A stretch of 64,000 nt of DNA. It comes from an uncultured Gemmataceae bacterium (GTDB lineage Bacteria; Planctomycetota; Planctomycetia; Gemmatales; Gemmataceae). The translations under genes and the position numbers were made by a program. Location: NCBI GenBank assembly GCA_963750165.1, contig CAVVPN010000004.1, positions 1,152,001-1,216,000 of the forward strand, in the 5' to 3' direction. Within the stretch, counting starts at the first letter, position 1. Every line of letters begins with the position of its first letter. The notes beneath the pieces were generated by a model, which searched no databases, was not told where the DNA came from, and worked only from the letters and a program-made list of their open reading frames with translations. Below are positions 2,291 through 47,911 of the stretch, in pieces.

Positions 2291-2503
2291 GGTAGCATTT
2301 CGTACTTTGCGTGCCGAACGACATAGCTCTGCGGCGGGCCACTTGACTTAATGTTATCCGATTGATCTCAGATGGCCCGTCCGCAGCAGCACCTTGGTTC
2401 GGCTCTGATGTTTTCAGGAATCGACTCCCGACCCCTTTGATTTTCCTTTCCGACTTCCGACCCCTTTTCTGTTCTCTCTCCCAGTCTCTGTCCTCTCGTC
2501 TAT

Positions 2504-4017
2504 CTTGGCAGTCGCACTTTTCCGAGTGCTCAAACCGCGAGATTTACGCAGTTTTTCAGCGCTCGATGAGTTTCAGGAGTTCCGTTGCATCGGCCGACTT
2601 GGGTTTAATTAGGGCGTTCAAAGTCGCCCGCCGCAACACGGCAACCATATGACGCAACGACCATTCACTCTCCCAGGGTCCCATCACTTGGCGCAATTCC
2701 TCCGCCTCCGGCAACTGCCGACCGGCGGTAAGATACCACACCATCACGACGCTCTGCAACGACCACACCCACGGCGCCACCTTCTCCACCGCTTCCCGAC
2801 TGTAGTGTTGTGGCGCCTCGAGGTCCAGCACCTGTTTGCTCGCCCGGAACAGTACCTCAATGGACCAGCCCAGGCGAACTGCGTAATCACCCACCCCACG
2901 TCCGCACGCACGTCGGTCGTGAACAGGTAGGCATCGTCCAACTTCCCGTCCGGGTCGCGCACCACCACCACCTGCACCGGCCGCAACCCCAACACCCGCG
3001 GCCACACCGCCCGGTAGGCGAACGCCCGCAGGACGCGCTGCTCCCCGTAGACGGTCACCGTCACCGCCTGCCACACCCAGTCCCCGGTGGCCACGCGCTT
3101 ACGGTCGGCCTTGGCGGCGGCTGCTTTGGGGTTGGGCAGACGCGGCCCCTTCTGCGCCTTGCGGCCGCGCCGGCCGGGCTTGGCCTGAGGCAGACGCGGG
3201 TCGTACACGGCCGCGTCGCCGCGCAACCGGCCGACGAAGGTCACGCGCTCGTCCAGGTCCGCCAGCAGCGCTTGGGCCGCGTAAGCGCCGTCGGCCACCA
3301 GGGTAAAGCGCCGGCCGGGGAACCAGGCCAGCACTTCGGCGAGCACCCACGCAGCAGTGGGCAGGACGGCTGCGCCTGGCCGGGCCGGTGCAACCGGGCC
3401 AGCAAGGGCAACGCCAGGATCGGGGCGTTCGCGAAGGGCAGGCAGACGGCGACGGCGACGACCACCCAGTTGTGCCCCGCGGCCGTGGCGGTGCGTTTGC
3501 GGGTCGAGGCGACGGCATCGCGGAACCAGCCGAGGCCCCAGACGTGCTTGCCGCGCTTGTGGGCCAGGGTGTCGTCCACCAACAGCGTGATGGTGCCGCC
3601 CAGGTGGAGGCGCGTCAGGATGAGGACGGCGACGTGGTAGGCCAACCCGGTCACGGTCCAGGCGGAGCGCGCAAAGAAGTTGTAGGTGGTGTCCAGGCCG
3701 TGGCGCCGGGAATGGTCCCGCAAGTCTTGGGGTTGGGCGGTGTCGGCGACGCGACAGAGGCGGTGCTGGCCCAGGCACATCACCCAGCCGAGCACGAGTT
3801 GGCAGTGGGTGTGGAACGAGGGCAGGGTGAAGGCCGGGGCGAGGGCTTGGACGATGGGCTGGAGAGAAGCTATCATCAGCCACATGAGGGGCTCCTTCCG
3901 GCGAGTGCATGGCTTGAGAACCTATGCACAAACTTAGGAGGAACCCCTCTCTCTTTCTGCGACAGCCCCGTGACACTATCGGTGTTCGTCTGTTCATGGA
4001 AGCGTGCGACAGTTCAG
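2504..4017 (-). mobile_element. IS701-like DDE insertion sequence, frameshifted copy
   Basis: Near-identical to 31010-32529. Imperfect 20-bp IRs, 4-bp TSD CTAT (2500-2503 / 4018-4021), and small deletions that break the transposase frame. Confidence 0.9.
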
Positions 4018-4020
4018 CTA

Positions 4021-5836
4021 TCATGGACCCTTATTATTGCCTTGTGGGGTTGCGGTCCCCTTTCCCTTACGAGCAGGGTAGAGCATGATCCCCCACGTGT
4101 CATCAATCGTGTAAACTGCGCCGACGTGATCGACAATCGAATCCAAAAACCTCTGGTAAGTCATCCCCTTTCTCGCGACGACGCTGATCCTCAATTCCTT
4201 AATATTCTTGCCGTCTTTGTCGAAAATCTCTTCTTCAAAACAGAAAAACACCTCAATCTGGTTGTGAATCCACAGCAGGATTTCCTCAAAACTCTCACGT
4301 TCAAACTTCTTTTCGGCCTGAATCCTGTTAGGAAGTTTTGACTTTGCAACCGCCCCAAGACCCTTTGGAAGGTTTTCTTCGGATTGCAATTTCTTGTCAT
4401 CAGCAGGGCTAAGGCAGCCGTTCAAAATTAGTCCGCAGCTTACACCTGGGTGCTGATGTTAGAATATTGTCCAACGTGGCTTGATGGTGTAATTCCAACT
4501 GGGGCAGACGGCATGCCTTTGGAGGCGCCACGTCTGCATTTCTGCGTCCGGCACCTTGACCCCCTTCGCGTACTCCGCGTCCAGCAACGTCGCACGTACC
4601 GCCCAACCGGCGTCCGTCTCCGTGCCCCGGATGCAGGCCAACAGCGTCTCCACGGTTCGCAGCGGCTCCCCCGCCCAGTTGACGCTGATGCGGCTGAACA
4701 GCCGGTGCTCCACCGGGTTCCACTTCGACGCCCCCCGCGGGTAATGGCACACCGTCACCCACAGCCCCCAGCGGTCGGCCAACTCCTCCTGGAGGCGCTG
4801 TTTCCACAACCGCACGCGGCAACTGTTGCTCCCGCCCGCGTCGCACAGGATCAGCAACTCGTCGGCCTGCGGGTACCACAGCCGTCCCTCGCCGCGCCAC
4901 CACCGGCCGATCACGTCCCCCGCGAACGCCGCGGTGTCGGCGGACAACCCCACGTAGACATGGCCGCGGTCCTGGCGCACGTCGTAGACCCCGTAGGGGA
5001 CGGCCCGGCCCAAGGCGTCGTCCAGGAAGTCGTGGGCGTTGACCTCCGTCCGCGCCGGCACCACTGCCGCCCTGCATTCTTGAAGTTGCCGATCAACTCC
5101 TTTTTCTTGCTGTCCACGCTGATCACCGGCTGGCCGAGGATGGCGAAGCGGCGCCGCTGCCCGGCGATGTACGCGAACTGCCGGTCCCGGTCTGGGTGAG
5201 GCGGGCCGGTGAAGCGCTTGCGGTTGGCCTTGAGCGAATAGCCCAGGTCGTCCAACAGGCGATAGACCGTGGCGGGGCTGACGGCGAAGCCTTGGCCTTG
5301 CAACCGCGTGCTCAGGTAGGCGACGCTGTGGCGCACCCACTTCTGACAGGTTTGCGGGCTGCCGGCGGTCTGCTCCTGGACCAAGCTGCCTCAAAGCGTT
5401 CATGAGGCCCGGCACTTTTTTTTCACAGCGGGCCGTCCTGCCCCGGGCCGGCGGATGCGATCCGGGGGGCAGTCCCGCAGGGAGTCCTCGAGTTCCCGGC
5501 GACCGCGCCGGATGGTTTCCACGTTCAGGCCGGTGATGAGGGACAGTAGGCGGTCGCCGCCGCGGCCGACCTTCTGGGACTCCCAGGCTGCCAACCACCG
5601 GCGTTGGTGCTCATCCAACCGGCTCAGGAGAAGGTTGAGCCGGTAATGGAGGGCGCGTTCGGGGTGGTCCGCACCTTGTCGGCAGTGAGGGCATTGGCAT
5701 TGGTGGATGTCCACGGCTCTGCCTCCCTTCCAAACCAGGCCCCCGGTTGGGCCAGGGTTATTGTAGAAGGGAACTGCGGATTAATTTTGAAACGTTGCCT
5801 AATGGCAAGCGCCATCAAGACGACGATGGTTGGCAT
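4021..5836 (-). pseudogene. Secreted hypothetical cassette protein interrupted by ISAzo13
   Basis: Removing the IS restores MPTIVVLMALAI-SPADDKKLQSEE in frame. Confidence 0.8.
4413..5799 (-). mobile_element. ISAzo13-family insertion sequence (transposase split over three frames)
   Basis: Motifs VISVDSKKKELIGNFKN, ILCDAGGSNS and HYPRGASKWNPVEHRLFS. IRs GGCAGCCGTTCAAAATTA / GGCAACGTTTCAAAATTA. TSD TAA (4410-4412 / 5800-5802). Confidence 0.92.
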
Positions 5837-14397: not shown

Positions 14398-14628
14398 CCG
14401 AGTCTCCCGTCAGCAGCCGAGACCCACCAAAGTATCAGGAACCATTTTCACCCAAACGGACCGGAAACGGCTCCTGACACCCGCCCGCTCATCTCGCCGC
14501 CGAACGATAAGGATAAGCTGCCGGGGCCGCCTGCAATACCTAGATACCGCGCGAAACCAGGATGGCGGCCCCGGTCAGCTTCATCCGTTGGTTCGCCGAC
14601 GGCCCTCTCGCACCCGCCGCCGCGCCGC

Positions 14629-16541
14629 TCATTTTCGCTTCTTCAAGGATGCGCAATAGCTGTCATACGCGGTTCGAACATCAGAATCCGACAAAGTCAC
14701 CGTTGCCGACTGGAGGGGCTCAGTGCCCGTTTTTTTGAGCCATTTCAGACACTTGTCAACATTGCTAATTCTACTGTGCTACTTTCCTCTTTTCGGTCGG
14801 CCGCGCGGCCGCGGCCGACGCGGCGGGAACTGCCCGGTCGCGTTGTGCCAGTGGTAGATGCGTGCCTCCTCGTTACGCCGCAGCACTTGGCTCACCATCT
14901 CCGCGATCCCGGGCCGCGCTGGGGCGCGGCTCGCCGCAGCAGTTCCGTGAAGATCTGCCGCACCTGCGGCACCGTCACCGGCGGCGTTTTTTCCCCCCAA
15001 CCGCAGCTTCTCGGTCTGCAAGAACCACAGGGCCAACAGCGACAGCGTCATGTGGTGGTGCCAGCCCGCCCAGCTGCGCACCTCGTAGTGGCTCAGGCCC
15101 ACCTCCGCCCTTGCCTCCGCCAATAACTCCTCGACCCCGTGCCGCGCCCCGTGTACCCGCACCACCTCGCCCGCGGCGCGTCCGGTGCGGCGTTGCTCAG
15201 CGTGTACCACGTCTGCGGCTTCGTCTCGCAACTCTTGCGGATCGCCAGACGTTCGCGTGGCCCCACGCAGCCGTCCTCGTCCTTGGTCTGCACCGCCGCC
15301 AACAGCACCTTGCACCCCCTGCGGCCCCTTGTCTCCGTCGCGCAGCTTCACCTTGCGCCACCGCCCCGCCGGCTGCCGCGCCGCCCACCTCGACCCGCTC
15401 GAACGCCGGCAACCGCTGCCGGCCGCCGGCCCGCGCCGGCGGTCGACCGCTCGGCCAGGTCGCGCACCAGGGTGTTGCAGGGCACGTCCAGCACGTACGC
15501 TGCCGCCGCTGCCGCAGGGCCGCCCGCAGTTCCGTGCAGCGGCCGAACTCGTCGTCGCCGGCCACCCAGCCGCCCGGCAAGTCGGCCGGGCGCGGTCGAA
15601 GCAACTCCAGGCCGATCCGCCAGCTTCTCTGCGAAGGCCACCGTCCTCGGGCACATAGCGTCGGCGGCGGTGGCGGCCGGGTCGTCGGCCCAGTCCTGGT
15701 CCAGGTAGAGGCTGGGCGTCGAGCAGGGTCTGGCCGCGCGGGGCGACGTAGGCCAGGAAGACGCCGACCTGACAGTTCTCGATCTTGCCCAGGCGGCCGC
15801 ACCACTGGCGGGCCACGCCGCACGAGGCCTCCCCCTTCTTGGGGAACGCCGAGGGGTCCAGGACCAAGACGGCGTCGGGGTCGGCCAATTCCTCGGCGAC
15901 GTGGCGGCGGAGTTCGTCCAGGACGGCCTGGTCGTCCCAGCCGCCGGCGCCGACGAAGAGCTGCAGGGGGCGGCGTTCGGCCGGCCTGGGTGGCGATGGG
16001 CTCGGTGGTCTTGCGCTGCAGGCCGGTGAGCTTGCCGCGCAGCATGGTCAGGGCGTGGCCGCGCTGCTCCTCGCGGTAGAACCGGGGAGGTAGCGCTGGA
16101 CGAAGGCGGTCAACTGGTCCGCGCAGGAGCGGACGGCGGCAGCGGAGAGTTCGGCGTCGTTCAGCAGGGCCTGCGCGTCGGGGTGGTCGAGGATGTCCAT
16201 GGCGGCCTCCAGAAAGATACCGCCGTTCAGTGTAGCCACCGCGTCAGCTGCCGGCTAGAATCATGTTGCACAGTAGAACTAAACAAGCCACCCTTCCCCC
16301 CAAGAGCCTTCCTTACTGCGCGCGACCGATTACGAGCCAAAAGATATCGGTCATTCTTCACTTGGACGATGCCACAGTCAACGAGCCTGGAGAACGCCCG
16401 CGATAGCTCTCCGGCCGTTGGGATCGCATGGTTGATCACGTCGGCGGCACCAATGATCTCGGCGAGCGTCGCCCCGCCCCTTTTGTGCATGAGCGACGTG
16501 ACCGTTAGGATCCAGGCATCATTCCAGGCCCATTGCGACAT
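14629..16541 (-). pseudogene. IS-disrupted duplicate of cassette gene 30133-30531
   Basis: Flanks of the IS match 30009-30550 apart from one substitution seen at 16501 vs 30491. Confidence 0.9.
14769..16278 (-). mobile_element. IS701-family insertion sequence, multiply frameshifted transposase
   Basis: Motif VLVLDPSAFPKKGEASCGVARQWCGRLGKIENCQVGVFLAY. IR TTCTACTGTGC(T/A)AC. TSD CTAA (14765-14768 / 16279-16282). The empty site is visible near 30269. Confidence 0.95.
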
Positions 16542-16649
16542 AGTTTGTTTAGTTGGCGAACGCCACAGCTCAGCAGCCGGCGGCCCCGGAAGACGTTGAA
16601 CCGCGCGAAACCGTATGGGCCGCCGGTCTGCTGTAGCACGTGGTTCGGC

Positions 16650-21981: not shown

Positions 21982-22015
21982 GTGGGACTCCTTGTAAATC
22001 TCGGTATTCGCCGAA

Positions 22016-22554
22016 CATGGAGTTCACGTGCTGGAGGCGCGCTTGACCGACTGGCAATTTGCAACGACAGAAGGGCGCGCCTCCAGTCATGTGCAACGCA
22101 GGGTTCGGCTTGGCGGCCGCAGCAACGTGAGACTCCATGTTCCAAGTGGCTAGCCGGTTGCCCTTTGACGAACCGGAGGTGGGCTGGCGGCAACCACGAT
22201 CCAGTGCCCACCCGCTAGCGTCGGGGGCGCGCGGCCTGCGCGTAACGCCAGGCCCGAGACTGACAACCATCGGCCGGGGCGCGCCGGTCAGGCCGGGACA
22301 GCTGGGACGAGGCGGGCGACGGCTGGGTGCCGCTGGCGCCTGCTATCCTGGATTCGGACGACAACGCGCGGGGCGACGGCCTGGGGTGCAGCCTCGGTCG
22401 CTGCGGACGCAAGGCACCCCGACGCTCTCGGACTGGACGCCACAGCCGGTGGACCTCGGTCGCCGCCGCTGCACCGCCGCGCGTCTATAGCCTCGCGGCC
22501 GCAATCGTCGTAAACCTATGGTACTACACAACTTATGACGCCAGCCAAGCCGAA
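22016..22554 (-). other. Apparently non-coding cassette, copy 1
   Basis: Identical to 23727-24265, with no RBS-led ORF. Its ends are complementary (GTTCGGCTTGGC / GCCAAGCCGAAC). Confidence 0.8.
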
Positions 22555-22703
22555 CGACAAAGCTCAGCAGCCGGGGCCGCTGAGGAAATATTGTACCGCG
22601 CGAAACCGTAATGCGGCCCCGGTCTGCTGAAGCGACTGGTTCGGCGGCTACTCGCAGACAACACAAACCGACAGCAACGCCGCGCCATGTTCCTCGTCCA
22701 CCC

Positions 22704-23705: not shown

Positions 23706-23726
23706 CGGAAGCCTCCCCTAGCCGAA

Positions 23727-24265
23727 CATGGAGTTCACGTGCTGGAGGCGCGCTTGACCGACTGGCAATTTGCAACGACAGAAGGGCGCGCCTCCAGTCA
23801 TGTGCAACGCAGGGTTCGGCTTGGCGGCCGCAGCAACGTGAGACTCCATGTTCCAAGTGGCTAGCCGGTTGCCCTTTGACGAACCGGAGGTGGGCTGGCG
23901 GCAACCACGATCCAGTGCCCACCCGCTAGCGTCGGGGGCGCGCGGCCTGCGCGTAACGCCAGGCCCGAGACTGACAACCATCGGCCGGGGCGCGCCGGTC
24001 AGGCCGGGACAGCTGGGACGAGGCGGGCGACGGCTGGGTGCCGCTGGCGCCTGCTATCCTGGATTCGGACGACAACGCGCGGGGCGACGGCCTGGGGTGC
24101 AGCCTCGGTCGCTGCGGACGCAAGGCACCCCGACGCTCTCGGACTGGACGCCACAGCCGGTGGACCTCGGTCGCCGCCGCTGCACCGCCGCGCGTCTATA
24201 GCCTCGCGGCCGCAATCGTCGTAAACCTATGGTACTACACAACTTATGACGCCAGCCAAGCCGAA
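23727..24265 (-). other. Apparently non-coding cassette, copy 2
   Basis: Identical to 22016-22554 (offset 1711). Confidence 0.8.
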
Positions 24266-24451
24266 CTACCAAGTTCACGTGCGGGCCACTTGACGTAAAC
24301 GATTCGCTGCAACCGTAGTTGGCCCGTCATGTGCAACGACTGGTTCGAGAAAGTTCTCTCTCGACTTCGACCCTTCTGTCTGCCGCGCTGGAAGCGCTCC
24401 AGCCGGACAACTCGAAGTCCTCAAACCCAGCCGCAGGTTGCTCGGCCCACT

Positions 24452-27814: not shown

Positions 27815-27901
27815 GCACCCTCGCCGCCGAACGACTCAGCTCCCACGAAAATGTATTTCTGGGACTGTGTCCACCGAGGGGACCGTCGTGGGTGGTCCTG
27901 C

Positions 27902-29149
27902 TCAGGCCGCCGGTTCCGCCACGGTCACCTCATAGCCCATTCTCTGCAGCCGCCGCACCAGCCTCTCCTTCAGCCGGTCCTTGTCTGCCGTCCGGTAATA
28001 GTCCGGCCCCTCTTCCTGGTACGGCCGGCGCTTGCTCAGTAGTGTGTAGGCCATCCGCAAGATCCGGTGCCCCACCGCCAGGCAGGCCCGCTTGTCCCCG
28101 CGGCGTGCCTTGATCCGATGGTACGTCGCCCGCAGACTGCTCTCCTTGGTGTTCGCCGCTCCCCGCGCCGCCTCCACCAGCGCCTGCCGCAGCCAGCGGT
28201 TGCCCTTGCGCGTCTTGCCGCTCTTCTGCTTGCCAGCGCTCTCGTGGTTGCCTGGACACATCCCCGCCCACGACGCCAACTGCCCCTCCGATTGAAAGCG
28301 GCTCATGTCCAGGCCGACCTCCGCCACGATCACCTGCGCCGTCCGCTGGTTCACCCCGGGAATCTGGTCCAACAGCGCTAGCGCCTGCGCGAACGGGAGG
28401 CACACCTCGGCGATCTTCGCATCCAAGCGGACGATGGCGTCGTCCAGGTCGCTCACCTTCTGTAATTGCTCCCGCAGCAACCAGCGCTGCGTCGCGCTCA
28501 TCACCCCGCGCAGCGCTTCCTCCAATTCCGGGATCTTCGCACGCAGCTGGCCCCGCGCCAGGTTGGCCAGTACGGCGGGGCTGTCCACGCCCTCGGCCAG
28601 GCTGCGTAACATGTCTCGGCCACTGGCTCCCAGTACGTCGCTGGCCACGCCGGCCAACTTGATGTTGCAGTTCTCCAGCAACTTCTGGATACGGTTGCTC
28701 TCGTCGGCGCGCTGGCGGATCACTTGCGTGCGGTAGCGCGTCAAGTCCCGCAGTTCCCGGATTTCCTTGGGGGGCACGAAACTACTGCGCAACAGGCCCA
28801 CACGCAACAGGGTGGCGAGCCACTCGGCATCCTTGACATCGGTCTTGCGTCCGGGCACGTTCTTGACGTGCTGGGCGTTGACCAGGACGACCTCAATGCC
28901 GGCCTGCTCCAGGATGTTGAACACCGGCTTCCAATACACGCCGGTGCTCTCGATGGCCACGTGCCGACAGTCCGCCTGCACCAACCACTGCGCCAACTCC
29001 TGCAAGGCGCTGGTCATGGTCCGAAAGACCCGGCGCTCGACGAGCGCATCGCCCGAGGCACCCGACTTCAAGAGGCAGGCGGTCAGGGTCTTCTTGTGGA
29101 CATCAATGCCGCAGCAAATGGTCAGCACGACAGGGAGCAGCGCGTCCAT
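27902..29149 (-). CDS. IS110-family DEDD recombinase/transposase
   Basis: GIDVHKK, IESTGVYW, KTDVKDA and GNHESAGK motifs; GGAG RBS before ATG 29149. Confidence 0.95.
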   Translation of the reverse strand: MDALLPVVLTICCGIDVHKKTLTACLLKSGASGDALVERRVFRTMTSALQELAQWLVQADCRHVAIESTGVYWKPVFNILEQAGIEVVLVNAQHVKNVPGRKTDVKDAEWLATLLRVGLLRSSFVPPKEIRELRDLTRYRTQVIRQRADESNRIQKLLENCNIKLAGVASDVLGASGRDMLRSLAEGVDSPAVLANLARGQLRAKIPELEEALRGVMSATQRWLLREQLQKVSDLDDAIVRLDAKIAEVCLPFAQALALLDQIPGVNQRTAQVIVAEVGLDMSRFQSEGQLASWAGMCPGNHESAGKQKSGKTRKGNRWLRQALVEAARGAANTKESSLRATYHRIKARRGDKRACLAVGHRILRMAYTLLSKRRPYQEEGPDYYRTADKDRLKERLVRRLQRMGYEVTVAEPAA

Positions 29150-29160
29150 CGGAGTTCTCC

Positions 29161-29325
29161 AGACGCCCAGGGAGCATGCAGACGCCGGCGGTGGTGGAGT
29201 CTCCCACACGGGCATATGGGCGCTGCGCCCAAATCAGGGTGCCTCGCGGCGTCCGGGTCCAACTCTGCGTCGGGCACGATGCACCAGCTAAGTCACGACC
29301 ACAGCACGTCCCCAGACGCCCTCTA
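29161..29325 (-). ncRNA. Predicted bridge RNA of the IS110 element
   Basis: Outer stem GGGCGUCUGGGGA/UCCCUGGGCGUCU. An internal loop carries GACUUAGCU (29286-29294) and CGCAGAG (29263-29269), matching both halves of the attC insertion site. Boundaries approximate. Confidence 0.8.
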
Positions 29326-29719
29326 TCCTAGCTCGCCTCCTTTTCATCGATCAGGGGGAAATTGGTTTCATGGAGAACTCTGCGGCGGGCCACTCGGCTC
29401 AATGCTATCCGATTGACCTCATATGGCCCGTCCGCAGCAGCACCTGGTTCGGTTTGTTTTTTCTCTTGGCCTCAATCTCTCTTTGCTGGACGCCGTCTGC
29501 GTTTCAGACTCCAACTCCGCTTCGGCCAGCGCTGACTCCAGTCTGACCTGCTGCTCCCCCAGAACCCAACCACTCACCGCCGCCCAACCTCTGAATCGCC
29601 AACTTGCTCACAACCCGGCACCCCTCCGGGCACGAACCCCAACGCTCCCCGAATGCGCCAAGCCAGCGCTGCCGCACGGGAGCACCCCTCACCCTGCCGA
29701 AGCGCCACCGCGGCCGGGG

Positions 29720-29983
29720 TCAGCTGCACTTGATGGTTCGGCCCGCCTTCCGTTGGGCCGCCTTGTGCTCCTGCGCACGCTCCTTTCGTTCGGCCAGGTC
29801 TCGGAGCCGTTTGGCACGCCGCCGCAGCCACCGCGGATCGTCGGCGGGGTCGGAGTAACCGGAGCGGCGATCCAATCGGTCAGCCCAGGCGTGCAATTCC
29901 TCGGCGGGGTGCGCGTCCATTCCCGCAAACCCACCGAACCGAGGTCGGAGAACGACGATCCGTCCCCGAAACAGTTTCGCCAT
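29720..29983 (-). CDS. Small hypothetical cassette protein
   Basis: AGGAGG RBS; ends in a half-attC-like segment at 29710-29742. Confidence 0.55.
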   Translation of the reverse strand: MAKLFRGRIVVLRPRFGGFAGMDAHPAEELHAWADRLDRRSGYSDPADDPRWLRRRAKRLRDLAERKERAQEHKAAQRKAGRTIKCS

Positions 29984-30132
29984 TGCATGCCCCTCCTGTG
30001 CATCCGAACGATAAGGATAAGCTGCCGGGGCCGCCTGCAATACCTAGATACCGCGCGAAACCAGGATGGCGGCCCCGGTCAGCTTCATCCGTTGGTTCGC
30101 CGACGGCCCTCTCGCACCCGCCGCCGCGCCGC

Positions 30133-30531
30133 TCATTTTCGCTTCTTCAAGGATGCGCAATAGCTGTCATACGCGGTTCGAACATCAGAATCCGACAAAG
30201 TCACCGTTGCCGACTGGAGGGGCTCAGTGCCCGTTTTTTTGAGCCATTTCAGACACTTGTCAACATTGCTAAACAAGCCACCCTTCCCCCCAAGAGCCTT
30301 CCTTACTGCGCGCGACCGATTACGAGCCAAAAGATATCGGTCATTCTTCACTTGGACGATGCCACAGTCAACGAGCCTGGAGAACGCCCGCGATAGCTCT
30401 CCGGCCGTTGGGATCGCATGGTTGATCACGTCGGCGGCACCAATGATCTCGGCGAGCGTCGCCCCGCCCCTTTTGTGCATGAGCGACGTGGCCGTTAGGA
30501 TCCAGGCATCATTCCAGGCCCATTGCGACAT
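30133..30531 (-). CDS. Hypothetical cassette protein (intact copy)
   Basis: Fills cassette; duplicated at 14629-16541. Confidence 0.75.
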   Translation of the reverse strand: MSQWAWNDAWILTATSLMHKRGGATLAEIIGAADVINHAIPTAGELSRAFSRLVDCGIVQVKNDRYLLARNRSRAVRKALGGKGGLFSNVDKCLKWLKKTGTEPLQSATVTLSDSDVRTAYDSYCASLKKRK

Positions 30532-31009
30532 AGTTTGTTTAGTTGGCGAACGACAAAGTTCACGTGCGGGCCGCTCGACTTAATGTGTCCGTGTGGACTC
30601 AGTTGGCCCGTCACGTGCAACGCCTGGTTCGGAAATGTTTTCTCCCGGCTTTATCTCTTATTTCGTGGAGCTAATTCAAGCTGCGTCCTCTTTTCCGTTT
30701 CAACTGAGCGGCATGAGGATCCCTTTCTTTATTTCGTTCCACGTTTAGTTTTTGCTTCTTCAAGGAGGTATTCTGCTTCAAGGCGATCCGAGGTGGCCAA
30801 AAAAAGCGCACGATCCGCCGCCAACCTCTTTGAATGTAATTTCTTGACCAATCCCTCAAATTCAGTCATGCGGTTGAGGTGCCCCTTGTAGGCTTCTTGC
30901 TCCTTTTGAGGCGAATCCGCAAGAACAAGCTGCGCTTTCAACATCCTCTCGGAAAGATTGTAAAGTCCTTCTCCCGCGCTTCTCGCATCCTTCACCTCAC
31001 GGTACATAG

Positions 31010-32529
31010 CTGAACTGTCGCACGCTTCCATGAACAGACGAACACCGATAGTGTCACGGGGCTGTCGCAGAAAGAGAGAGGGGTTCCTCCTAAGTTTGTG
31101 CATAGGTTCTCAAGCCATGCACTCGCCGGAAGGAGCCCCTCATGTGGCTGATGATAGCTTCTCTCCAGCCCATCGTCCAAGCCCTCGCCCCGGCCTTCAC
31201 CCTGCCCTCGTTCCACACCCACTGCCAACTCGTGCTCGGCTGGGTGATGTGCCTGGGCCAGCACCGCCTCTGTCGCGTCGCCGACACCGCCCAACCCCAA
31301 GACTTGCGGGACCATTCCCGGCGCCACGGCCTGGACACCACCTACAACTTCTTTGCGCGCTCCGCCTGGACCGTGACCGGGTTGGCCTACCACGTCGCCG
31401 TCCTCATCCTGACGCGCCTCCACCTGGGCGGCACCATCACGCTGTTGGTGGACGACACCCTGGCCCACAAGCGCGGCAAGCACGTCTGGGGCCTCGGCTG
31501 GTTCCGCGATGCCGTCGCCTCGACCCGCAAACGCACCGCCACGGCCGCGGGGCACAACTGGGTGGTCGTCGCCGTCGCCGTCTGCCTGCCCTTCGCGAAC
31601 GCCCCGATCCTGGCGTTGCCCTTGCTGGCCCGGTTGCACCGGCCCGGCCAGGCGCAGCCGTCCTGCCCACTGCTGGCGCGCGCGCTGCTCGCCGAAGTGC
31701 TGGCCTGGTTCCCCGGCCGGCGCTTTACCCTGGTGGCCGACGGCGCTTACGCGGCCCAAGCGCTGCTGGCGGACCTGGACGAGCGCGTGACCTTCGTCGG
31801 CCGGTTGCGCGGCGACGCGGCCGTGTACGACCCGCGTCTGCCTCAGGCCAAGCCCGGCCGGCGCGGCCGCAAGGCGCAGAAGGGGCCGCGTCTGCCCAAC
31901 CCCAAAGCAGCCGCCGCCAAGGCCGACCGTAAGCGCGTGGCCACCGGGGACTGGGTGTGGCAGGCGGTGACGGTGACCGTCTACGGGGAGCAGCGCGTCC
32001 TGCGGGCGTTCGCCTACCGGGCGGTGTGGCCGCGGGTGTTGGGGTTGCGGCCGGTGCAGGTGGTGGTGGTGCGCGACCCGGACGGGAAGTTGGACGATGC
32101 CTACCTGTTCACGACCGACGTGCGTGCGGACGTGGGGTGGGTGATTACGCAGTTCGCCTGGCGCTGGTCCATTGAGGTACTGTTCCGGGCGAGCAAACAG
32201 GTGCTGGACCTCGAGGCGCCACAACACTACAGTCGGGAAGCGGTGGAGAAGGTGGCGCCGTGGGTGTGGTCGTTGCAGAGCGTCGTGATGGTGTGGTATC
32301 TTACCGCCGGTCGGCAGTTGCCGGAGGCGGAGGAATTGCGCCAAGTGATGGGACCCTGGGAGAGTGAATGGTCGTTGCGTCATATGGTTGCCGTGTTGCG
32401 GCGGGCGACTTTGAACGCCCTAATTAAACCCAAGTCGGCCGATGCAACGGAACTCCTGAAACTCATCGAAGCGCTGAAAAACTGCGTAAATCTCGCGGTT
32501 TGAGCACTCGGAAAAGTGCGACTGCCAAG
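31010..32529 (+). mobile_element. IS701-like insertion sequence, intact copy
   Basis: Imperfect IRs CTGAACTGTCGCAC / CTTGGCAGTCGCAC; TSD ATAG (31006-31009 / 32530-32533). Confidence 0.92.
31142..32503 (+). CDS. DDE transposase (IS701-like)
   Basis: LLVDDT, VADGAY and RWSIEVLFRASKQ motifs; 453 aa. Confidence 0.92.
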   Translation: MWLMIASLQPIVQALAPAFTLPSFHTHCQLVLGWVMCLGQHRLCRVADTAQPQDLRDHSRRHGLDTTYNFFARSAWTVTGLAYHVAVLILTRLHLGGTITLLVDDTLAHKRGKHVWGLGWFRDAVASTRKRTATAAGHNWVVVAVAVCLPFANAPILALPLLARLHRPGQAQPSCPLLARALLAEVLAWFPGRRFTLVADGAYAAQALLADLDERVTFVGRLRGDAAVYDPRLPQAKPGRRGRKAQKGPRLPNPKAAAAKADRKRVATGDWVWQAVTVTVYGEQRVLRAFAYRAVWPRVLGLRPVQVVVVRDPDGKLDDAYLFTTDVRADVGWVITQFAWRWSIEVLFRASKQVLDLEAPQHYSREAVEKVAPWVWSLQSVVMVWYLTAGRQLPEAEELRQVMGPWESEWSLRHMVAVLRRATLNALIKPKSADATELLKLIEALKNCVNLAV

Positions 32530-32703
32530 ATAGCATCGTAGGCTTTTTCAGCAGCATTCAGTTTTGCGTTCGCCAATTCTCGCAGTGTTTTCTTGTCTCC
32601 AGCTGAAGACACACCACTAGCCAGGGCGAGGACGATAGGAATTAGAACGCTGTATCTCATGATTCATCACCTCTGAAATAATGTATGAAGAATGAAGCAG
32701 CGA

Positions 32704-32773
32704 ATAAGAAAAGGGGTCGGGAGTCGATATTACGAATCTGAAAAACGTGTTATCGACTCCCGACCCCTTTTCT
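32704..32773. repeat. 70-bp palindrome, copy 3
   Basis: Identical to 5916-5985; lies in a cassette 5' leader. Confidence 0.92.
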
Positions 32774-32926
32774 CCCCCAGACGCTCTTTGGGCTTCCTCG
32801 GCATTAACTCTCAAGCGGCCGAACGACAGAGCTCAGCAGCCGGCTCACGCGGGCTAAAGCTTTGACGCACGACGAACCTTCCTTCGCGTGGCCGGTCGGC
32901 TGCAGCGTTTGGTTCGGCTCGGCTCG

Positions 32927-33586
32927 CTACCCCAACTGCCGGAGCGCCTTTTCCAGCCAGAAACAATACCACTCCAGAAAGGTGACCCGCTCTTGGCCAC
33001 CTTGTTGTAGGGGTCTGAGGCCGCCGTGGTCTGTTCGGTCATCATCCCACACATGGCCCGCCTCGGCGCCTGTTATAACCAACCACTGTCGCAACGCGCA
33101 ACCAAGATGGCAGATGGGAACTGCCCCATTGACATTGGCCGTGTTCCAGTACACGTGGTCCTCCCAAGCGTCCAGCTGACGTTGGTATTCGTCCTCCCAT
33201 TCGGGGTCGTTCTCTCGGGATTCATCATAGACCGGCTCCGCAGACAGGTCATTCCAGGGGCCGGTATGTGGGAACGGCTCGGAGAGAACGCCGACAAACC
33301 CATCGTTCTCGGTCCACGCCTTGTGTCCAAAGCCGTCGTCCATTTCGCCAAGTTTGAACAGCCCGTATGCAGGCCCTGCTCCGCCATTACCGACGCTGAT
33401 GAGGAAACCCCGGTAGTCTTGAGGCAAGGCGACACGATGACGAGCCTCAAAATCTCGCACGACTTCTTCCGGCAGTGGCGGGTGAGTGCGAAAGCCGTGC
33501 GCCTGGGAGCCGAATACCTTTAGTGGTGCGGCAGACTCCCGCAACCGACAAAGCCCTTCGCGGATCATGGCGAAGTCTTCTCTCAT
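32927..33586 (-). CDS. SMI1/KNR4 (SUKH) family protein
   Basis: LPEEVVRDFEARHRVALPQDYRGFLISVGNGGAGP...TFLEWY. Confidence 0.88.
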   Translation of the reverse strand: MREDFAMIREGLCRLRESAAPLKVFGSQAHGFRTHPPLPEEVVRDFEARHRVALPQDYRGFLISVGNGGAGPAYGLFKLGEMDDGFGHKAWTENDGFVGVLSEPFPHTGPWNDLSAEPVYDESRENDPEWEDEYQRQLDAWEDHVYWNTANVNGAVPICHLGCALRQWLVITGAEAGHVWDDDRTDHGGLRPLQQGGQERVTFLEWYCFWLEKALRQLG

Positions 33587-33822
33587 CCATCGCCTCCAGT
33601 GTAGCCGAACTACCCAGTTCACGTGCGGGCCACTTGACGTAAACTATTCGCTGCAACCGTAGTCGGCCCGTCACGTGCAACGGCTGGTTCGGGCATGTTC
33701 TCTCTTGCCTTCGACCCTTCTTCCTCGGACCCAGTGTTGCTCTCAGCGGCAGCTCCCCGTCATGGTAGTTCCGCAACAGCACCCGATCCGGGCAGGCCAA
33801 CCGCGTCAAGCCGGCATCCGCC

Positions 33823-34233
33823 TCAAGTGTCCTTGGACGGTTTGTGCAGGGGTCGCTTCCACGTATCGTACAGTGATTGCAATTCTTGCTGCCAGTAGGC
33901 TTCCTCTTCAGCGGGGCCGCCGGTAAACCGACCGAGTTGCCTCGCCAGTCCGAAGAAGCCCGGGCCAGGCTTCCCACTCACGACCGATACTGCAACCGCG
34001 CTGAGCATCGGCCGCTTTGCTTTGACCTCATCCTCGGCGATCTCCCCAAGGATCTGCCCGGTCTCCCCGGCCATATATCCGCCCTGCAGCGGGAGGCCCA
34101 TGATGACCGCAATGTCCTGGTAGGTCGTCACGCCACGGTACTCTGCGGCGCGGATGAGTTCCGCAAGCACGCGGATGTAATTGGTCGTCCCGCGGTACTT
34201 GTCTTTGACGGGGAAGTGATCGAGGATTTGCAT
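33823..34233 (-). CDS. Hypothetical cassette protein
   Basis: GGAGG RBS; TTYQDIA and PMLSAVAV..SGKPGPGFF motifs. Confidence 0.75.
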   Translation of the reverse strand: MQILDHFPVKDKYRGTTNYIRVLAELIRAAEYRGVTTYQDIAVIMGLPLQGGYMAGETGQILGEIAEDEVKAKRPMLSAVAVSVVSGKPGPGFFGLARQLGRFTGGPAEEEAYWQQELQSLYDTWKRPLHKPSKDT

Positions 34234-34329
34234 GCTGCCTCCACAGGACGACGCCGTGCGTTCCGGGCTACTCGCTCATGACGACGGGTACCGCCGGGGC
34301 GCCTTCCGGCGCGCCCGAACGACCCAGCT

Positions 34330-35866
34330 CCCACGAAAATGTATTTCTGGGACTGTGTCCACCGAGGGGACCGTCGTGGGTGGTCCTGCTCAGGCCGCCG
34401 GTTCCGCCACGGTCACCTCATAGCCCATTCTCTGCAGCCGCCGCACCAGCCTCTCCTTCAGCCGGTCCTTGTCTGCCGTCCGGTAATAGTCCGGCCCCTC
34501 TTCCTGGTACGGCCGGCGCTTGCTCAGTAGTGTGTAGGCCATCCGCAAGATCCGGTGCCCCACCGCCAGGCAGGCCCGCTTGTCCCCGCGGCGTGCCTTG
34601 ATCCGATGGTACGTCGCCCGCAGACTGCTCTCCTTGGTGTTCGCCGCTCCCCGCGCCGCCTCCACCAGCGCCTGCCGCAGCCAGCGGTTGCCCTTGCGCG
34701 TCTTGCCGCTCTTCTGCTTGCCAGCGCTCTCGTGGTTGCCTGGACACATCCCCGCCCACGACGCCAACTGACCCTCCGACTGGAACCGGCTCATGTCCAG
34801 CCCGATCTCCGCCACGATCACCTGCGCCGTCCGCTGGTTCACCCCGGGAATCTGGTCCAACAGCGCTAGCGCCTGCGCGAACGGGAGGCACACCTCGGCG
34901 ATCTTCGCATCCAAGCGGACGATGGCGTCGTCCAGGTCGCTCACCTTCTGTAATTGCTCCCGCAGCAACCAGCGCTGCGTCGCGCTCATCACCCCGCGCA
35001 GCGCTTCCTCCAATTCCGGGATCTTCGCACGCAGCTGGCCCCGCGCAGGTTGGCCAGTACGGCGGGGCTGTCCACGCCCTCGGCCAGGCTGCGTAACATG
35101 TCTCGGCCACTGGCTCCCAGTACGTCGCTGGCCACGCCGGCCAACTTGATGTTGCAGTTCTCCAGCAACTTCTGGATACGGTTGCTCTCGTCGGCGCGCT
35201 GGCGGATCACTTGCGTGCGGTAGCGCGTCAAGTCCCGCAGTTCCCGGATTTCCTTGGGGGGCACGAAACTACTGCGCAACAGGCCCACACGCAACAGGGT
35301 GGCGAGCCACTCGGCATCCTTGACATCGGTCTTGCGTCCGGGCACGTTCTTGACGTGCTGGGCGTTGACCAGGACGACCTCAATGCCGGCCTGCTCCAGG
35401 ATGTTGAACACCGGCTTCCAATACACGCCGGTGCTCTCGATGGCCACGTGCCGACAGTCCGCCTGCACCAACCACTGCGCCAACTCCTGCAAGGCGCTGG
35501 TCATGGTCCGAAAGACCCGGCGCTCGACGAGCGCATCGCCCGAGGCACCCGACTTCAAGAGGCAGGCGGTCAGGGTCTTCTTGTGGACATCAATGCCGCA
35601 GCAAATGGTCAGCACGACAGGGAGCAGCGCGTCCATCGGAGTTCTCCAGACGCCCAGGGAGCATGCAGACGCCGGCGGTGGTGGAGTCTCCCACACGGGC
35701 ATATGGGCGCTGCGCCCAAATCAGGGTGCCTCGCGGCGTCCGGGTCCAACTCTGCGTCGGGCACGATGCACCAGCTAAGTCACGACCACAGCACGTCCCC
35801 AGACGCCCTCTATCCTAGCTCGCCTCCTTTTCATCGATCAGGGGGAAATTGGTTTCATGGAGAACT
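34330..35866 (-). mobile_element. IS110-family element inserted in attC, copy 2 (1-bp frameshift near 35046)
   Basis: Near-identical to copy 1; removal restores CCGAACGACCCAG-CT-CTGCGGCGGGCC. Confidence 0.95.
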
Positions 35867-35987
35867 CTGCGGCGGGCCACTCGACTTAATGTGTCCGAGT
35901 AGACTCATATGGCCCGTCCGCAGCAGCACCTGGTTCGGACGGTTACTTTTCGACTTGGCCCCGTTCGCGCTTGGCCCAACAGGGGCT

Positions 35988-37734: not shown

Positions 37735-37815
37735 CGAACCTCTGATTATAGTGCGCTCTGCGCAACGTAGCACGGCCAAGCGCAACGTAGCAAGGGCATG
37801 CGCAACGTAGCAAAG
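37735..37815 (-). other. Second, internal attI site (three direct repeats)
   Basis: Same as 46334-46434 except that one 20-bp unit is missing. Confidence 0.85.
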
Positions 37816-37966
37816 GGAACGCGTTTCCCATCGCCTTTTTCTTGTACCCTCCCTCCGCGGTTCGGACAAGGAAAAAAAATTCCGCAGCGGCGTTTTTTCC
37901 TGGCACCGCCTGGCACACGCCCGTACACTAACGATAATATGCATTCCTGGTTGGAGGAGATCAGCC

Positions 37967-38720
37967 ATGTCGCCGGAAACCGTACCCCAACCGCCTCGTC
38001 TGCTCGATCAACTTCGCCAGGCAGCGTTGACCCAGTTCGGCCGACCGGAACCCGGCGAGCGTTACGCGCGCTGGGCGACCCGATTTATCCTCTTCCACCA
38101 CAAGCGCCACCCCCGCGACCTCGGCGCCGACGAGGTGCAGCACTTCCTCGAACACGTTGGCAAAACCGAAGAGCGGCCGGTGGACGCCCTCTTCGCGGCG
38201 CGCGAAGCCCTGGCCTTCCTGTATCAACAGGTGCTGGGCATCCCCCTGGAGGAAGTTCGCCTGCCCGAACCGCCCCGCCTGCTGGAGCGGGTGCGGTTGG
38301 CCCTGCGCGTGCGGCACTACTCCCCGGCCACGGAAAATTGCTACGTCACCTGGGCGGAACGCTTCATCCGCTTCCACCACCTGCGCCACCCCCGCGACAT
38401 GGGGGCCGCGGAGGTCAACGCCTTCCTGACCCACCTGGCGGTCCAGGAGCGGGTCGCCGCCAGCACCCAGAACCAGGCCCTGAATGCCCTGGTCTTCCTG
38501 TTCCAGCAGGTGCTCGATCTGGACCTGGGCCGGTTAGAGGCGGTGCGGGCGCGGCGGCCGAAGCGCCTGCCGGTGGTCCTGGCCCCCGAAGAAGTCCGGC
38601 GCGTGCTGGAAGCCGTCACGGGAGGTTCCGGGGTGCTGCGACTCATGGCCAGCCTGCTGTACGGCGCCGGGTTGCGCCGGGCCGAGTGTTGTGGCCTGCG
38701 CGTGCAGGACGTGGACCTGG
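37967..38720 (+). pseudogene. intI: Truncated duplicate of integron integrase
   Basis: Protein is identical to 46586-47339 up to VQDVDL, then cut by palindrome copy 4; lacks the catalytic K, HxxR, H and Y. Confidence 0.95.
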
Positions 38721-38790
38721 ATAAGAAAAGGGGTCGGGAGTCGATATTACGAATCTGAAAAACGTGTTATCGACTCCCGACCCCTTTTCT
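38721..38790. repeat. 70-bp palindrome, copy 4
   Basis: Identical to 5916-5985; joins the truncated intI to a half attC. Confidence 0.92.
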
Positions 38791-45902: not shown

Positions 45903-46018
45903 CGGTGCGCCCTCTTTCCCGAACGACCAAGCTCAGTGGGCGCGGCGGCTCGGCGAGCTTGAAGTCTGAAAAGCGCCAATGCCGCCGCGGTCCACTGCAG
46001 TTCCTGGGGCGGCGTGTA

Positions 46019-46585: not shown

Positions 46586-47911
46586 ATGTCGCCGGAAACC
46601 GTACCCCAACCGCCTCGTCTGCTCGATCAACTTCGCCAGGCAGCGTTGACCCAGTTCGGCCGACCGGAACCCGGCGAGCGTTACGCGCGCTGGGCGACCC
46701 GATTTATCCTCTTCCACCACAAGCGCCACCCCCGCGACCTCGGCGCCGACGAGGTGCAGCACTTCCTCGAACACGTTGGCAAAACCGAAGAGCGGCCGGT
46801 GGACGCCCTCTTCGCGGCGCGCGAAGCCCTGGCCTTCCTGTATCAACAGGTGCTGGGCATCCCCCTGGAGGAAGTTCGCCTGCCCGAACCGCCCCGCCTG
46901 CTGGAGCGGGTGCGGTTGGCCCTGCGCGTGCGGCACTACTCCCCGGCCACGGAAAATTGCTACGTCACCTGGGCGGAACGCTTCATCCGCTTCCACCACC
47001 TGCGCCACCCCCGCGACATGGGGGCCGCGGAGGTCAACGCCTTCCTGACCCACCTGGCGGTCCAGGAGCGGGTCGCCGCCAGCACCCAGAACCAGGCCCT
47101 GAATGCCCTGGTCTTCCTGTTCCAGCAGGTGCTCGATCTGGACCTGGGCCGGTTAGAGGCGGTGCGGGCGCGGCGGCCGAAGCGCCTGCCGGTGGTCCTG
47201 GCCCCCGAAGAAGTCCGGCGCGTGCTGGAAGCCGTCACGGGAGGTTCCGGGGTGCTGCGACTCATGGCCAGCCTGCTGTACGGCGCCGGGTTGCGCCGGG
47301 CCGAGTGTTGTGGCCTGCGCGTGCAGGACGTGGACCTGGCCCGCAAGCAAATCATGGTCCGCCACGGCAAGGGGGGCAAGGATCGGATCGTCATGTTGCC
47401 GAAATCCCTGGTGCCGGAGCTGGAAAAGCAGCTGGGGTCGCGGCGGGCGCTGCACGACCGCGACCTGGCCCGCGGCGTGGCCCGGGTGGCCCTGCCCACG
47501 GCCTTCGGCCGGAAATTCCCGAGGGCGGCCCAGGAGTTCGGCTGGCAATTCCTGTTCGCCTCGCGCCAACTATCCACCGACCCCAGGACGGGGGACACGG
47601 GCCGCCATCACCTCCACGAAGGGGTGCTGGCGCGGGCCATGACCCAGGCCCGGCGGCGGGCCGGCGTGAACCGCCAGGTGGGCTGCCACACCCTGCGGCA
47701 CAGCTTCGCCACCCACCTCGTCGAGCGCGGCGTCGATCTGCGCACCATTCAGGTCCTGCTGGGCCACGAGAGCGTGGAAACCACCATGATCTACACGCAC
47801 GTCGCCCGCCAGGGCCCGCCCGGCGTCACCAGCCCGCTCGACCTGCTCCACGACCTCACCGACGCCGACGTCCGGGCCGCCTGCGACGCCAACGGGCGAC
47901 TGACCCCCTGA
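46586..47911 (+). CDS. intI: Integron integrase with duplicated N-terminal domain
   Basis: YGAGLR, GKGGKDR, HTLRHSFATH, LLGH and TMIYTHV motifs, plus the IntI-specific insert VALPTAFGRKFPRAAQEFGWQFLF; GGAGG RBS. Confidence 0.97.
   Translation: MSPETVPQPPRLLDQLRQAALTQFGRPEPGERYARWATRFILFHHKRHPRDLGADEVQHFLEHVGKTEERPVDALFAAREALAFLYQQVLGIPLEEVRLPEPPRLLERVRLALRVRHYSPATENCYVTWAERFIRFHHLRHPRDMGAAEVNAFLTHLAVQERVAASTQNQALNALVFLFQQVLDLDLGRLEAVRARRPKRLPVVLAPEEVRRVLEAVTGGSGVLRLMASLLYGAGLRRAECCGLRVQDVDLARKQIMVRHGKGGKDRIVMLPKSLVPELEKQLGSRRALHDRDLARGVARVALPTAFGRKFPRAAQEFGWQFLFASRQLSTDPRTGDTGRHHLHEGVLARAMTQARRRAGVNRQVGCHTLRHSFATHLVERGVDLRTIQVLLGHESVETTMIYTHVARQGPPGVTSPLDLLHDLTDADVRAACDANGRLTP

Follow-up and report, generated by a model that had tools for sequence, protein, structure and literature searches.

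The question raised by this locus is what guides an IS110-family insertion sequence (IS), more than once, to a single base of integron attC sites. The locus lies in a 64,000-nucleotide stretch of DNA (the window, to which all coordinates refer) from an uncultured Gemmataceae bacterium; the window corresponds to a large integron, comprising the integrase gene intI and, to its left, 48 intact attC-like sites and two split ones. Each split site holds a copy of the element. Taken together, the analyses described here make it quite probable that the element is an RNA-guided IS110 member of the ISArsp3/ISAzo28-type clade, which was recently reprogrammed onto one attC subtype of its host, independently of the IS1111-attC group; this estimate covers the insertion site, the tracking of DNA partners by the guides, the pairing of the left donor guide and the blocking of attC, and it excludes the proposal of a folded-back donor, which is weighed separately below. 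The element, its recombinase and the interrupted sites are as follows.

27840..29379, minus strand: IS110-family element, copy 1, intact; both cores included, CT on the plus strand and AG on the coding strand
34328..35866, minus strand: IS110-family element, copy 2; a 1-nt deletion near 35045, possibly a sequencing error, frameshifts the recombinase
27902..29149, minus strand: DEDD recombinase of 415 aa; PF01548 E 4e-37, PF02371 E 6.5e-23
34390..35636, minus strand: recombinase gene of copy 2, frameshifted, from comparison of the copies
27827..27841, minus strand: part of the attC interrupted by copy 1 (final L' base, spacer, R' box); the cassette strand is the minus strand
29378..29452, minus strand: other part of the attC interrupted by copy 1 (R'', L'', central loop, most of L'); attC model match at 29370-29452, E 2e-9
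34315..34329, minus strand: split attC of copy 2, R' part, from sequence comparison of the copies
35865..35938, minus strand: split attC of copy 2, remainder; attC model match at 35857-35938, E 4e-9

The initial annotation of this DNA had described two copies inserted at the same position and in the same orientation in attC, and this was indeed borne out at 27840-29379 and 34328-35866; what it had missed is that the copies differ by six substitutions and the 1-nt deletion near 35045. It had also named copies at unrelated sites as the outcome that would count against guided insertion, whereas a third copy, differing from copy 1 by a single substitution, was found on another contig in a small attC cluster, at the identical attC base. 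All three genome copies (3/3) are at one base of attC, in three different attC sites, and the boundaries were defined from these. The element is inserted behind the first L' base, counting from the R' end, and is co-oriented with the cassettes. It is 1.54 kb long, with 228 nt of non-coding sequence upstream and 60 nt downstream of the recombinase gene, and the CT core is on the strand opposite to the transposase (AG on the coding strand). Such site- and orientation-specific insertion around a two-base core at both ends, seen in 3/3 copies, is a criterion of the IS110 family, as is the domain composition of the protein, in which a DEDD RuvC domain is followed by a C-terminal Tnp domain with the catalytic serine; in an alignment to 8wt6_A, residues D16, E68, D105, D108 and S308 line up with the catalytic residues of IS621. 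The six substitutions of copy 2 all fall within 36 bp (34771-34806) and are nearly all silent, which looks as if this segment had been converted from a related element absent from the assembly.

A bridge RNA was predicted in the upstream non-coding end, and its target guides were assigned as listed here.

29161..29321, minus strand: predicted bridge RNA, target loop and then donor loop inside a basal stem; from fold, family alignment and covariation
35648-35808, minus strand: predicted bridge RNA of copy 2, same as in copy 1
29286..29294, minus strand: left target guide, same sense as the attC spacer and CT core on the plus strand
29263..29271, minus strand: right target guide, complementary to the core and L' box of attC
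29261..29262, minus strand: handshake guide (UU); its match is the first dinucleotide of the left end

An internal loop bearing both target guides had been proposed in the initial annotation, and both were present; none of 20000 dinucleotide shuffles of the non-coding end held the two guides in order (0/20000), while single segments occurred in 28 (left target guide), 621 (right target guide) and 954 (donor segment) of the 20000. The donor segment GUGGGAG, which had been read as complementary to the element end, is likewise in place (29201-29207). The minimum-energy fold was no more stable than those of the shuffles (z -0.06), and two-sided changes were seen at 3/9 consensus pairs in 35 relatives; support for the loop is therefore drawn from pair covariation in the relatives and not from fold stability. 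An Rfam scan of the element gave no match, and a viral pattern scan returned a single chance match with no transposase beside it.

The relatives were collected from genomes and metagenomes as 156 non-redundant loci (cited below by L numbers), with at least 44% identity and a match starting in the first 25 residues; the target loop could be parsed by pattern in 57 of the 156, giving 51 distinct guide pairs. Covariation of guide and flank across homologues had been suggested as a check, and both target guides were indeed found to track their flanks. With p=1e-4 in each case (10000 permutations, in which the relatives are not independent and misparsed rows were kept), the right target guide scored 5.50 against its own flank and 3.78 against non-cognate flanks (n=50), the left target guide 5.48 against 4.05 (n=45), and the right donor guide 7.60 with its own end against 6.08 (n=45); held-out right target guides gave 6.2 for cognate flanks versus 3.8 (n=15). 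The core changes along with the guides, being AG in most relatives and AC or AA in some, and the core in the guide equals that at the junction in 35/45 relatives, AC and AA cores included. At the variable position of the handshake a match was seen in 22 of 25 relatives (7.7 expected). Handshake pairing has been described for IS621 (PMC11208158; statements on published work refer here and below to those sections of each source that were covered), and the handshake match to the left end places the crossover at the outer core, with the plus strand of the window as the exchanged 'top' strand.

Two results weigh against targeting by such an RNA: left target guides are loose in many relatives, only 7/45 being matched at 7/8 or better, and the recombinase of copy 2 is frameshifted. 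Three low-share contig runs contained no circle junction, but they left most of the non-coding end uncovered and carry little information on this point. Overall, the sequence comparisons support the proposition that the predicted bridge RNA directs targeting of integron attC.

The targets appear to be genuine integron attC sites by their sequence, having the R''-spacer-L''...L'-spacer-R' palindrome with the additional L'' base and being arrayed next to intI.

46586..47911, plus strand: integron integrase of 441 aa, PF13495 and PF00589; points away from the cassette array on its left

The 48 intact attC-like sites, spanning 294 to 46012, came from a search of the window with an attC model made from 29 of its own sites, a model that is tuned to host attC and that divergent attC may escape. 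With the attC grammar, 41 sites were matched in one orientation as against 4 in the opposite one, and the minus strand is therefore taken to be the cassette (top) strand. A CT-CTGCG right half is present in 10/50 window attC sites, of which two are occupied; the eight empty ones, among the 48 intact sites, are at 294, 1234, 2314, 6992, 7650, 18962, 25069 and 41868.

Across the genome, eight sites scored at least 16/18 against the guides, six of them attC (three occupied, three empty) and two non-attC, and only five empty sites in 9.6 Mb equal the occupied-site score, namely the attC at 1234, 2314 and 6992 of the window and two non-attC sites. Since so few genome sites score like the occupied ones, the guide alone accounts for the attC preference, and attC structure is not needed. 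The initial annotation had held that GACYYAGCTCTGCG occurs only at the two occupied attC sites. No empty site in the genome reads GACYYAGCTCTGCG, and the statement is therefore true genome-wide, but a strict GACYYAG selectivity did not survive, because the left flank of the third copy is GACATAG, which is also that of the empty sites 2314 and 6992.

Natural retargeting is supported by the sequence of L191 (89% amino acid identity over 171 residues), whose altered right guide fits another attC subtype; a further, intact attC lies next to it, and the contig holds one junction only. With the host-tuned model, no attC was found at the junctions of L006, L007, L119, L198 and L203 (70-75% identity), and on 133 loci the model, which may miss divergent attC, gave hits only in L002 (the element's own copy), L191 and L120. 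The clade has many unrelated targets, and attC targeting appears shallow; a deep attC-targeting lineage is not supported. L120 (54% identity) is inserted in the R' box (GTT and then core AG) of a 92-bp attC (L120:181-270), and its right target guide ends in GTTAG; it is not the sister of the element (approximately unbiased (AU) test, p=7e-45), and is probably a further, separate origin of attC targeting in the clade, represented by one locus. Right target guides ending in TTAG were also seen in L026, L042, L063, L170 and L011. The targets of L011, L026 and L157 end in GTT plus core, like an R' box, and no hairpin partner was found for them, while a grammar hit to attC in L032 had a different offset, was unconfirmed by the attC model and was dismissed as spurious. 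In eight family-level relatives (L226, L229, L232-L235, L237, L239), the target ends in GGTGTCAG or GGTGACAG, a common conserved target.

The donor side was analyzed in the same relatives, and the features on which it turns are these.

29201..29209, minus strand: right donor guide, complementary to the core and right end on the plus strand
29233..29241, minus strand: left donor guide; inner motif 29350-29358 matched in the same sense (8/9), no match beside the core
29350..29358, minus strand: inner motif, 20-28 nt from the core, that the left donor guide matches
29358..29369, no strand: short inverted repeat (hairpin) of the left end, 4 bp here and 5-6 bp in most relatives
29340..29347, minus strand: inner inverted repeat ATGAAAA, paired in sequence with the repeat of the right end; in many relatives it also resembles a -35 box
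29325..29330, minus strand: putative -10-like hexamer just 5' of the predicted RNA start; TAnnnT in 46/50 relatives, 14.4 expected
27845..27851, minus strand: right-end inverted repeat, TTTTCGT on the coding strand, from sequence comparison

The right donor guide conforms to the IS621 type, being matched at 7/8 or better in 41/45 relatives. A left donor guide of that type, on the bottom strand and directly at the core, was not found; the 5' arm of the donor loop, which is equivalent in position to the left target guide, covaries in the same sense with the motif that stands before the inner ATGAAAA. The initial annotation had seen no clear left donor guide; one exists at 29233-29241, and it covaries with the inner motif. 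The short subterminal inverted repeats described there are real in the element, but the family-wide partner is the inner repeat about 32 nt from the core. In 100/156 loci the left end has a common order, i.e., core, T, 4-5 variable bases, hairpin, guide-matched motif, two bases and ATGAAAA; the 56 loci dropped from this set had a short upstream stretch (26), lacked the inner motif (25) or were duplicates (5). A hairpin of at least 4 bp is present in 93/100 elements (24% of shuffles), and one of at least 5 bp in 82/100 (6.7% of shuffles). Its stem sequence varies, and among 445 inner pairs 438 are Watson-Crick, one G-T, one A-C and five other in a search that favoured Watson-Crick inner pairs; this spectrum is as expected of a stem formed by DNA, not RNA. 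At two variable positions, complementarity between the inner and the right-end repeat holds in 76/76 and 57/76 elements, respectively. By eye, ISArsp3 (L218) has the same left-end anatomy and RNA scaffold; its hairpin is strong, as are those of L033 and L138.

Several comparisons tie the left donor guide to the inner motif. Cognate pairs scored 6.42 and non-cognate pairs 5.07 (n=66/100, a few of them misparsed), the guide and motif columns covary along a clean diagonal (n=59), with mutual information of 0.88 and 0.80 in the variable columns, and held-out elements gave 7.0 versus 5.96 (13/15, found with the RNA model and with one bulge allowed). In 28 disjoint pairs, 29/37 guide changes were mirrored in the motif versus 15/103 unchanged positions, an odds ratio of 21, with the register of each element picked from two options. 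The canonical left donor flank was rejected as the partner, as it showed no covariation and scored 3.25 vs 3.10 in held-out elements; in the donor loop as compared with the flank beside the core, there was no covariation either (p 0.06-0.12, n=25). A 9-nt match at the ribosome-binding site (29153-29161) was likewise discarded as a left donor guide, being unconserved in L006, L007 and L191, with the 9-mer recurring in the gene. The donor-loop handshake bases had no clear match in the target flank (12/37 and 15/37), and a sigma-70 scan of the element gave no full match. By covariation, the predicted left donor guide is thus shown to match the inner motif, on the non-canonical strand, and not the core flank. 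The top strand would then be the partner of both donor guides.

By analogy to IS621, the recombinase and its RNA would read double-stranded attC with both target guides and swap top strands at the core. As the family covariation shows, DNA partners are tracked by the two target guides, by the right donor guide, by the core and by the handshake dinucleotide; the left donor guide would pair with the top strand of the donor. We propose a donor whose top strand doubles back at the hairpin; pairing between the inner and right-end repeats would then bring the inner motif to face the unread flank, where it would stand in for the absent bottom strand. Such a fold-back would suit the single-stranded copy-out circles that have been reported for IS621 (10.64898/2026.08.31.748434) and for CazIS110-1, for which top-strand copy-out and integration of single-stranded circles are described (10.1101/2025.10.25.684509). 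In predicted junction folds, the repeat stem formed in 46-54/71 elements and the hairpin in 51-53/71. Other results speak against the fold-back. At the element's own junction the hairpin has a probability of 0.08-0.18 and the inner repeat stem 0.0, and its minimum-energy fold uses the outer ATGAAA and not the inner repeat; the lengths of the unpaired bubble arms are negatively correlated (rho -0.44, n=57, kin not independent); and the inner repeat, being a -35-like box with a mode of 17 nt before TAnnnT, has another reason to be conserved. ISPpu9, from a sister clade, shares the AG polarity and carries a palindrome in its left end; circles still formed when that palindrome was mutated, and its authors propose that the palindrome has a role in integration (PMC12288879). 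On this balance, reading of the donor as a folded-back single strand is the likeliest option, though rated somewhat short of even. The wider proposal, that a very large IS110 clade builds its donor site from one folded strand, natively for single-stranded circles, and that this member has convergently turned it on attC, at the mirror of the position used by the IS1111-attC group, is likewise rated somewhat less likely than not. As to the integron, a split attC would not fold for IntI, judging from established attC biology, and copy-out would leave the site blocked; with the site unfoldable for IntI, the two flanking cassettes would therefore move as one unit.

Different uses of the inner motif can be envisaged. 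In one, the left donor guide reads the motif in duplex DNA as an operator, by which the complex represses or times its own transcription, and recombination is left to the right donor guide as a 'half-match'. This would fit with the inner ATGAAA lying 16-18 nt before TAnnnT in 23/50 relatives and adjoining the motif, with half-matched substrates being enough for IS621 (10.64898/2026.08.31.748434), and with ISPpu9 having a strong native promoter and, in the sections covered, no junction promoter (PMC12288879); it leaves unexplained why there is a hairpin, why the inner and right-end repeats are complementary and why core and inner repeat are a fixed 16-17 nt apart after subtraction of the hairpin (50/58), and the -35 to -10 spacing of the element itself is 11 nt. 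We consider an operator unlikely. The same applies, to a like degree, to a guide that acts on the inner motif without any fold-back, the hairpin being looped out to make core and motif collinear, or the motif serving as a duplex anchor three turns off. Here the sum of the two spacers is steadier (variance 0.66) than the whole distance (3.1), the spacers trade off, and the total distance peaks near three helical turns; such an arrangement would nonetheless give the displaced flank no partner, make no use of the repeat pairing and separate the guide duplex from the core by 7-16 nt, in contrast to the geometry of IS621 (PMC11208158).

That guide and motif merely resemble each other through internal duplication or shared descent, with no function and only three working guides, is quite improbable: related elements do have both sequences in common, and the first four guide bases are nearly invariant, but the variable columns covary, and the changes co-occur in the 28 disjoint pairs and in held-out loci. 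Least probable of all, and by our estimate very remote, is insertion driven by attC hairpin structure or by the host integrase, with an incidental guide match. All copies are in a strongly folding repeat, and both attC-targeting IS groups use the same palindrome position; only the CT-CTGCG subtype (10/50 window sites) is used, though, both strands are matched by the guides, and the left guide has no pairing partner in the opposite arm once the strand is folded. The shuffles, moreover, gave no match, and the guides change along with their targets.

The recombinase nests among relatives of ISArsp3 (43% identity) in a 47-row quick tree and is 24% identical to that of ISPa21; a tree joining ISPa21 with the element was rejected (AU p=2.75e-9), the tree being a quick one with long branches and ISPa21 the sole IS1111-attC member in it. 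The ISPa21 sequence was taken from plasmid pME-1a (L216) and named by the cassette order in PMC6739498, the record itself giving the IS110 family only. The phylogeny that the initial annotation had called for thus puts the recombinase outside the IS1111-attC clade, with no nesting. Of the independent, attC-targeting lineage with upstream non-coding region that had been postulated, the independence and the upstream region were upheld, and a lineage of any depth was not. By Siddiquee 2024, the long upstream non-coding region, the 395-455 aa subgroup and the lack of long subterminal repeats mark the element as IS110 group. Its guide order differs from the one stated there for IS110 (bottom-strand match first, as in ISEc21), its first guide being complementary to the coding strand, which is the order given for IS1111 and that of the IS1111 seekRNAs (PMC11187229); the rule for IS110 was based on one IS110 element.

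The clade is large, as 7493 of 8000 scored proteins were at E 1e-100 or better, and 86 of the 120 proteins listed are 70-86% identical to the element's. Protein scans of the phylum and the family found few close relatives, in 2/401 and 4/252 genomes, respectively, own genome counted. The sub-branch of the element is planctomycete and falls within the clade of the ISfinder-named cluster of ISArsp3, ISAzo28, ISGka2, ISCla1, ISCsa3 and ISAfe3 (PMC11187229, PMC11208160); the named nearest relatives likewise place the host among planctomycetes. Of these cluster members, ISAzo28, ISGka2, ISCla1, ISCsa3 and ISAfe3 carry the element's motifs in the supplements of the same two papers, the named relatives are assigned to IS110 in published source data, and a published identity matrix puts ISAzo28 and ISGka2 at 17-18.5% to ISPst6, ISKpn4 and ISPa21. 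The 'ISGka2' of PMC8024623 is an IS701 element and not the IS110 element of that name. In the literature searched, no attC target or donor-guide analysis was found for this cluster.

With the IS1111-attC group (ISPa21, ISPst6, ISKpn4, ISPa25; PMC11187229, PMC3001079) the element shares RNA-guided entry behind the first L-box base and a transposase antisense to the strand reading R box, spacer and L box. The two differ in that the group has a downstream RNA, 13-bp subterminal repeats and about 345 aa, and the element an upstream RNA and 415 aa; its transposase is outside the ISPa21/ISPst6/ISKpn4 clade, and it lacks the downstream non-coding region and the 11-13 bp subterminal repeats with 7 + 3 extensions. 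Moreover, ISPa21 enters L'' near the attC 5' end, antisense to the cassettes (PMC3001079), whereas the entry point of the element is in L', close to the 3' end, and its orientation is sense. Since the element is unrelated to ISPa21 and enters the mirror position of the palindrome, attC targeting has arisen convergently.

IS621/ISCro4 (PMC11208160, PMC11208158, PMC13626964; 8wt6, 9t56) likewise have a DEDD and serine recombinase and an upstream RNA with target loop then donor loop, and share with the element four guide positions, a two-base core and handshake bases. The IS621 protein is only distantly similar (E 2e-15) and has 328 aa against 415; the CT strand of the element is opposite to the transposase, unlike in IS621; and the left donor guide of IS621 is directed to the bottom strand beside the core (PMC11208158), that of the element to the top-strand inner motif. 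ISPpu9 (PMC12288879) is similar in belonging to the IS110 group and in its coding-strand AG core, upstream bridge RNA and native promoter; its ends are a 43-bp left box with a short palindrome and a 16-bp right box, it targets repetitive extragenic palindromic (REP) sequences, and it is placed beside, not within, the ISArsp3/ISAzo28 cluster. The role of its palindrome was left open, and no donor guides were mapped in the sections of that paper that were covered. CazIS110-1 (10.1101/2025.10.25.684509) also has a long IS110 recombinase and a bridge RNA of about 170 nt; its guides are described as pairing canonically at the junction, unlike those of the element, the likeness being by description and not by sequence.

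Further elements were noted in the genome. A non-autonomous family element at about 1242430-1242780 of G000:C3 has both ends and the bridge RNA and no transposase, its left donor guide likewise matching its own inner motif; a second copy of it (G000:C4:1041450-1041604) has lost the left end. Two other IS110 elements, at G000:C3:527327-528550 (L004) and C3:536916-538214, are 53% and 29% identical and lie outside attC. Outside the left core of L004 and of L010, the DNA looks like the left end of another element, which suggests tandem or nested insertions.

In the integron itself, a DDE transposase element (PF01609) occurs twice within cassettes (31006-32533 and 2500-4021), 99.5% identical and in opposite orientations, and at 37760-38720 the cassette array contains a second, 99.5% identical version of 961 bp of intI, made up of its promoter region with the first 255 codons. 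Near-identical cassettes or parts recur at 22010-22566 and 23721-24277, at 16279-16572 and 30269-30562, and at 14500-14768 and 30004-30272; because of such near-identical duplications, recent integron activity is indicated. An R'' end of GGGGCGG in place of GGTTCGG (plus strand) marks attC variants at 45919-46012, the site closest to intI, and at L191:724-811. A strong hairpin at 32694-32786, a GGGGTCGGGAGTCGATA-type palindrome that microRNA hairpin models match below threshold only, is possibly a REP-like repeat; a similar motif is found beside the third element copy and at 38766.

Earlier publications already cover, one by one, RNA-guided targeting of attC, bridge RNAs located upstream, AG polarity and the palindrome of the left end. 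No IS110-group attC-targeting element and no donor guide aimed at an inner motif were found in the literature searches and in the sections of papers covered here. The most unusual feature, to judge from the relatives, is the clade-wide direction of the left donor guide to the inner motif. Papers of 2025-2026 disagree on whether the circles of IS110 elements have one strand or two, and on the way in which the donor loop engages them; a clade with a left donor guide able to pair only with the top strand makes this dispute directly testable. The IS621 rule is unfit for designing donors of these orthologues, for which a left end of about 40 nt would be needed and the guide order differs, and the fold, if real, would make the recombinase suited to single-stranded cargo. 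For integrons, the element would represent a second, and L120 probably a third, independent origin of RNA-guided attC parasitism, outside proteobacteria, with entry at the L box in the element and at the R' crossover box in L120.

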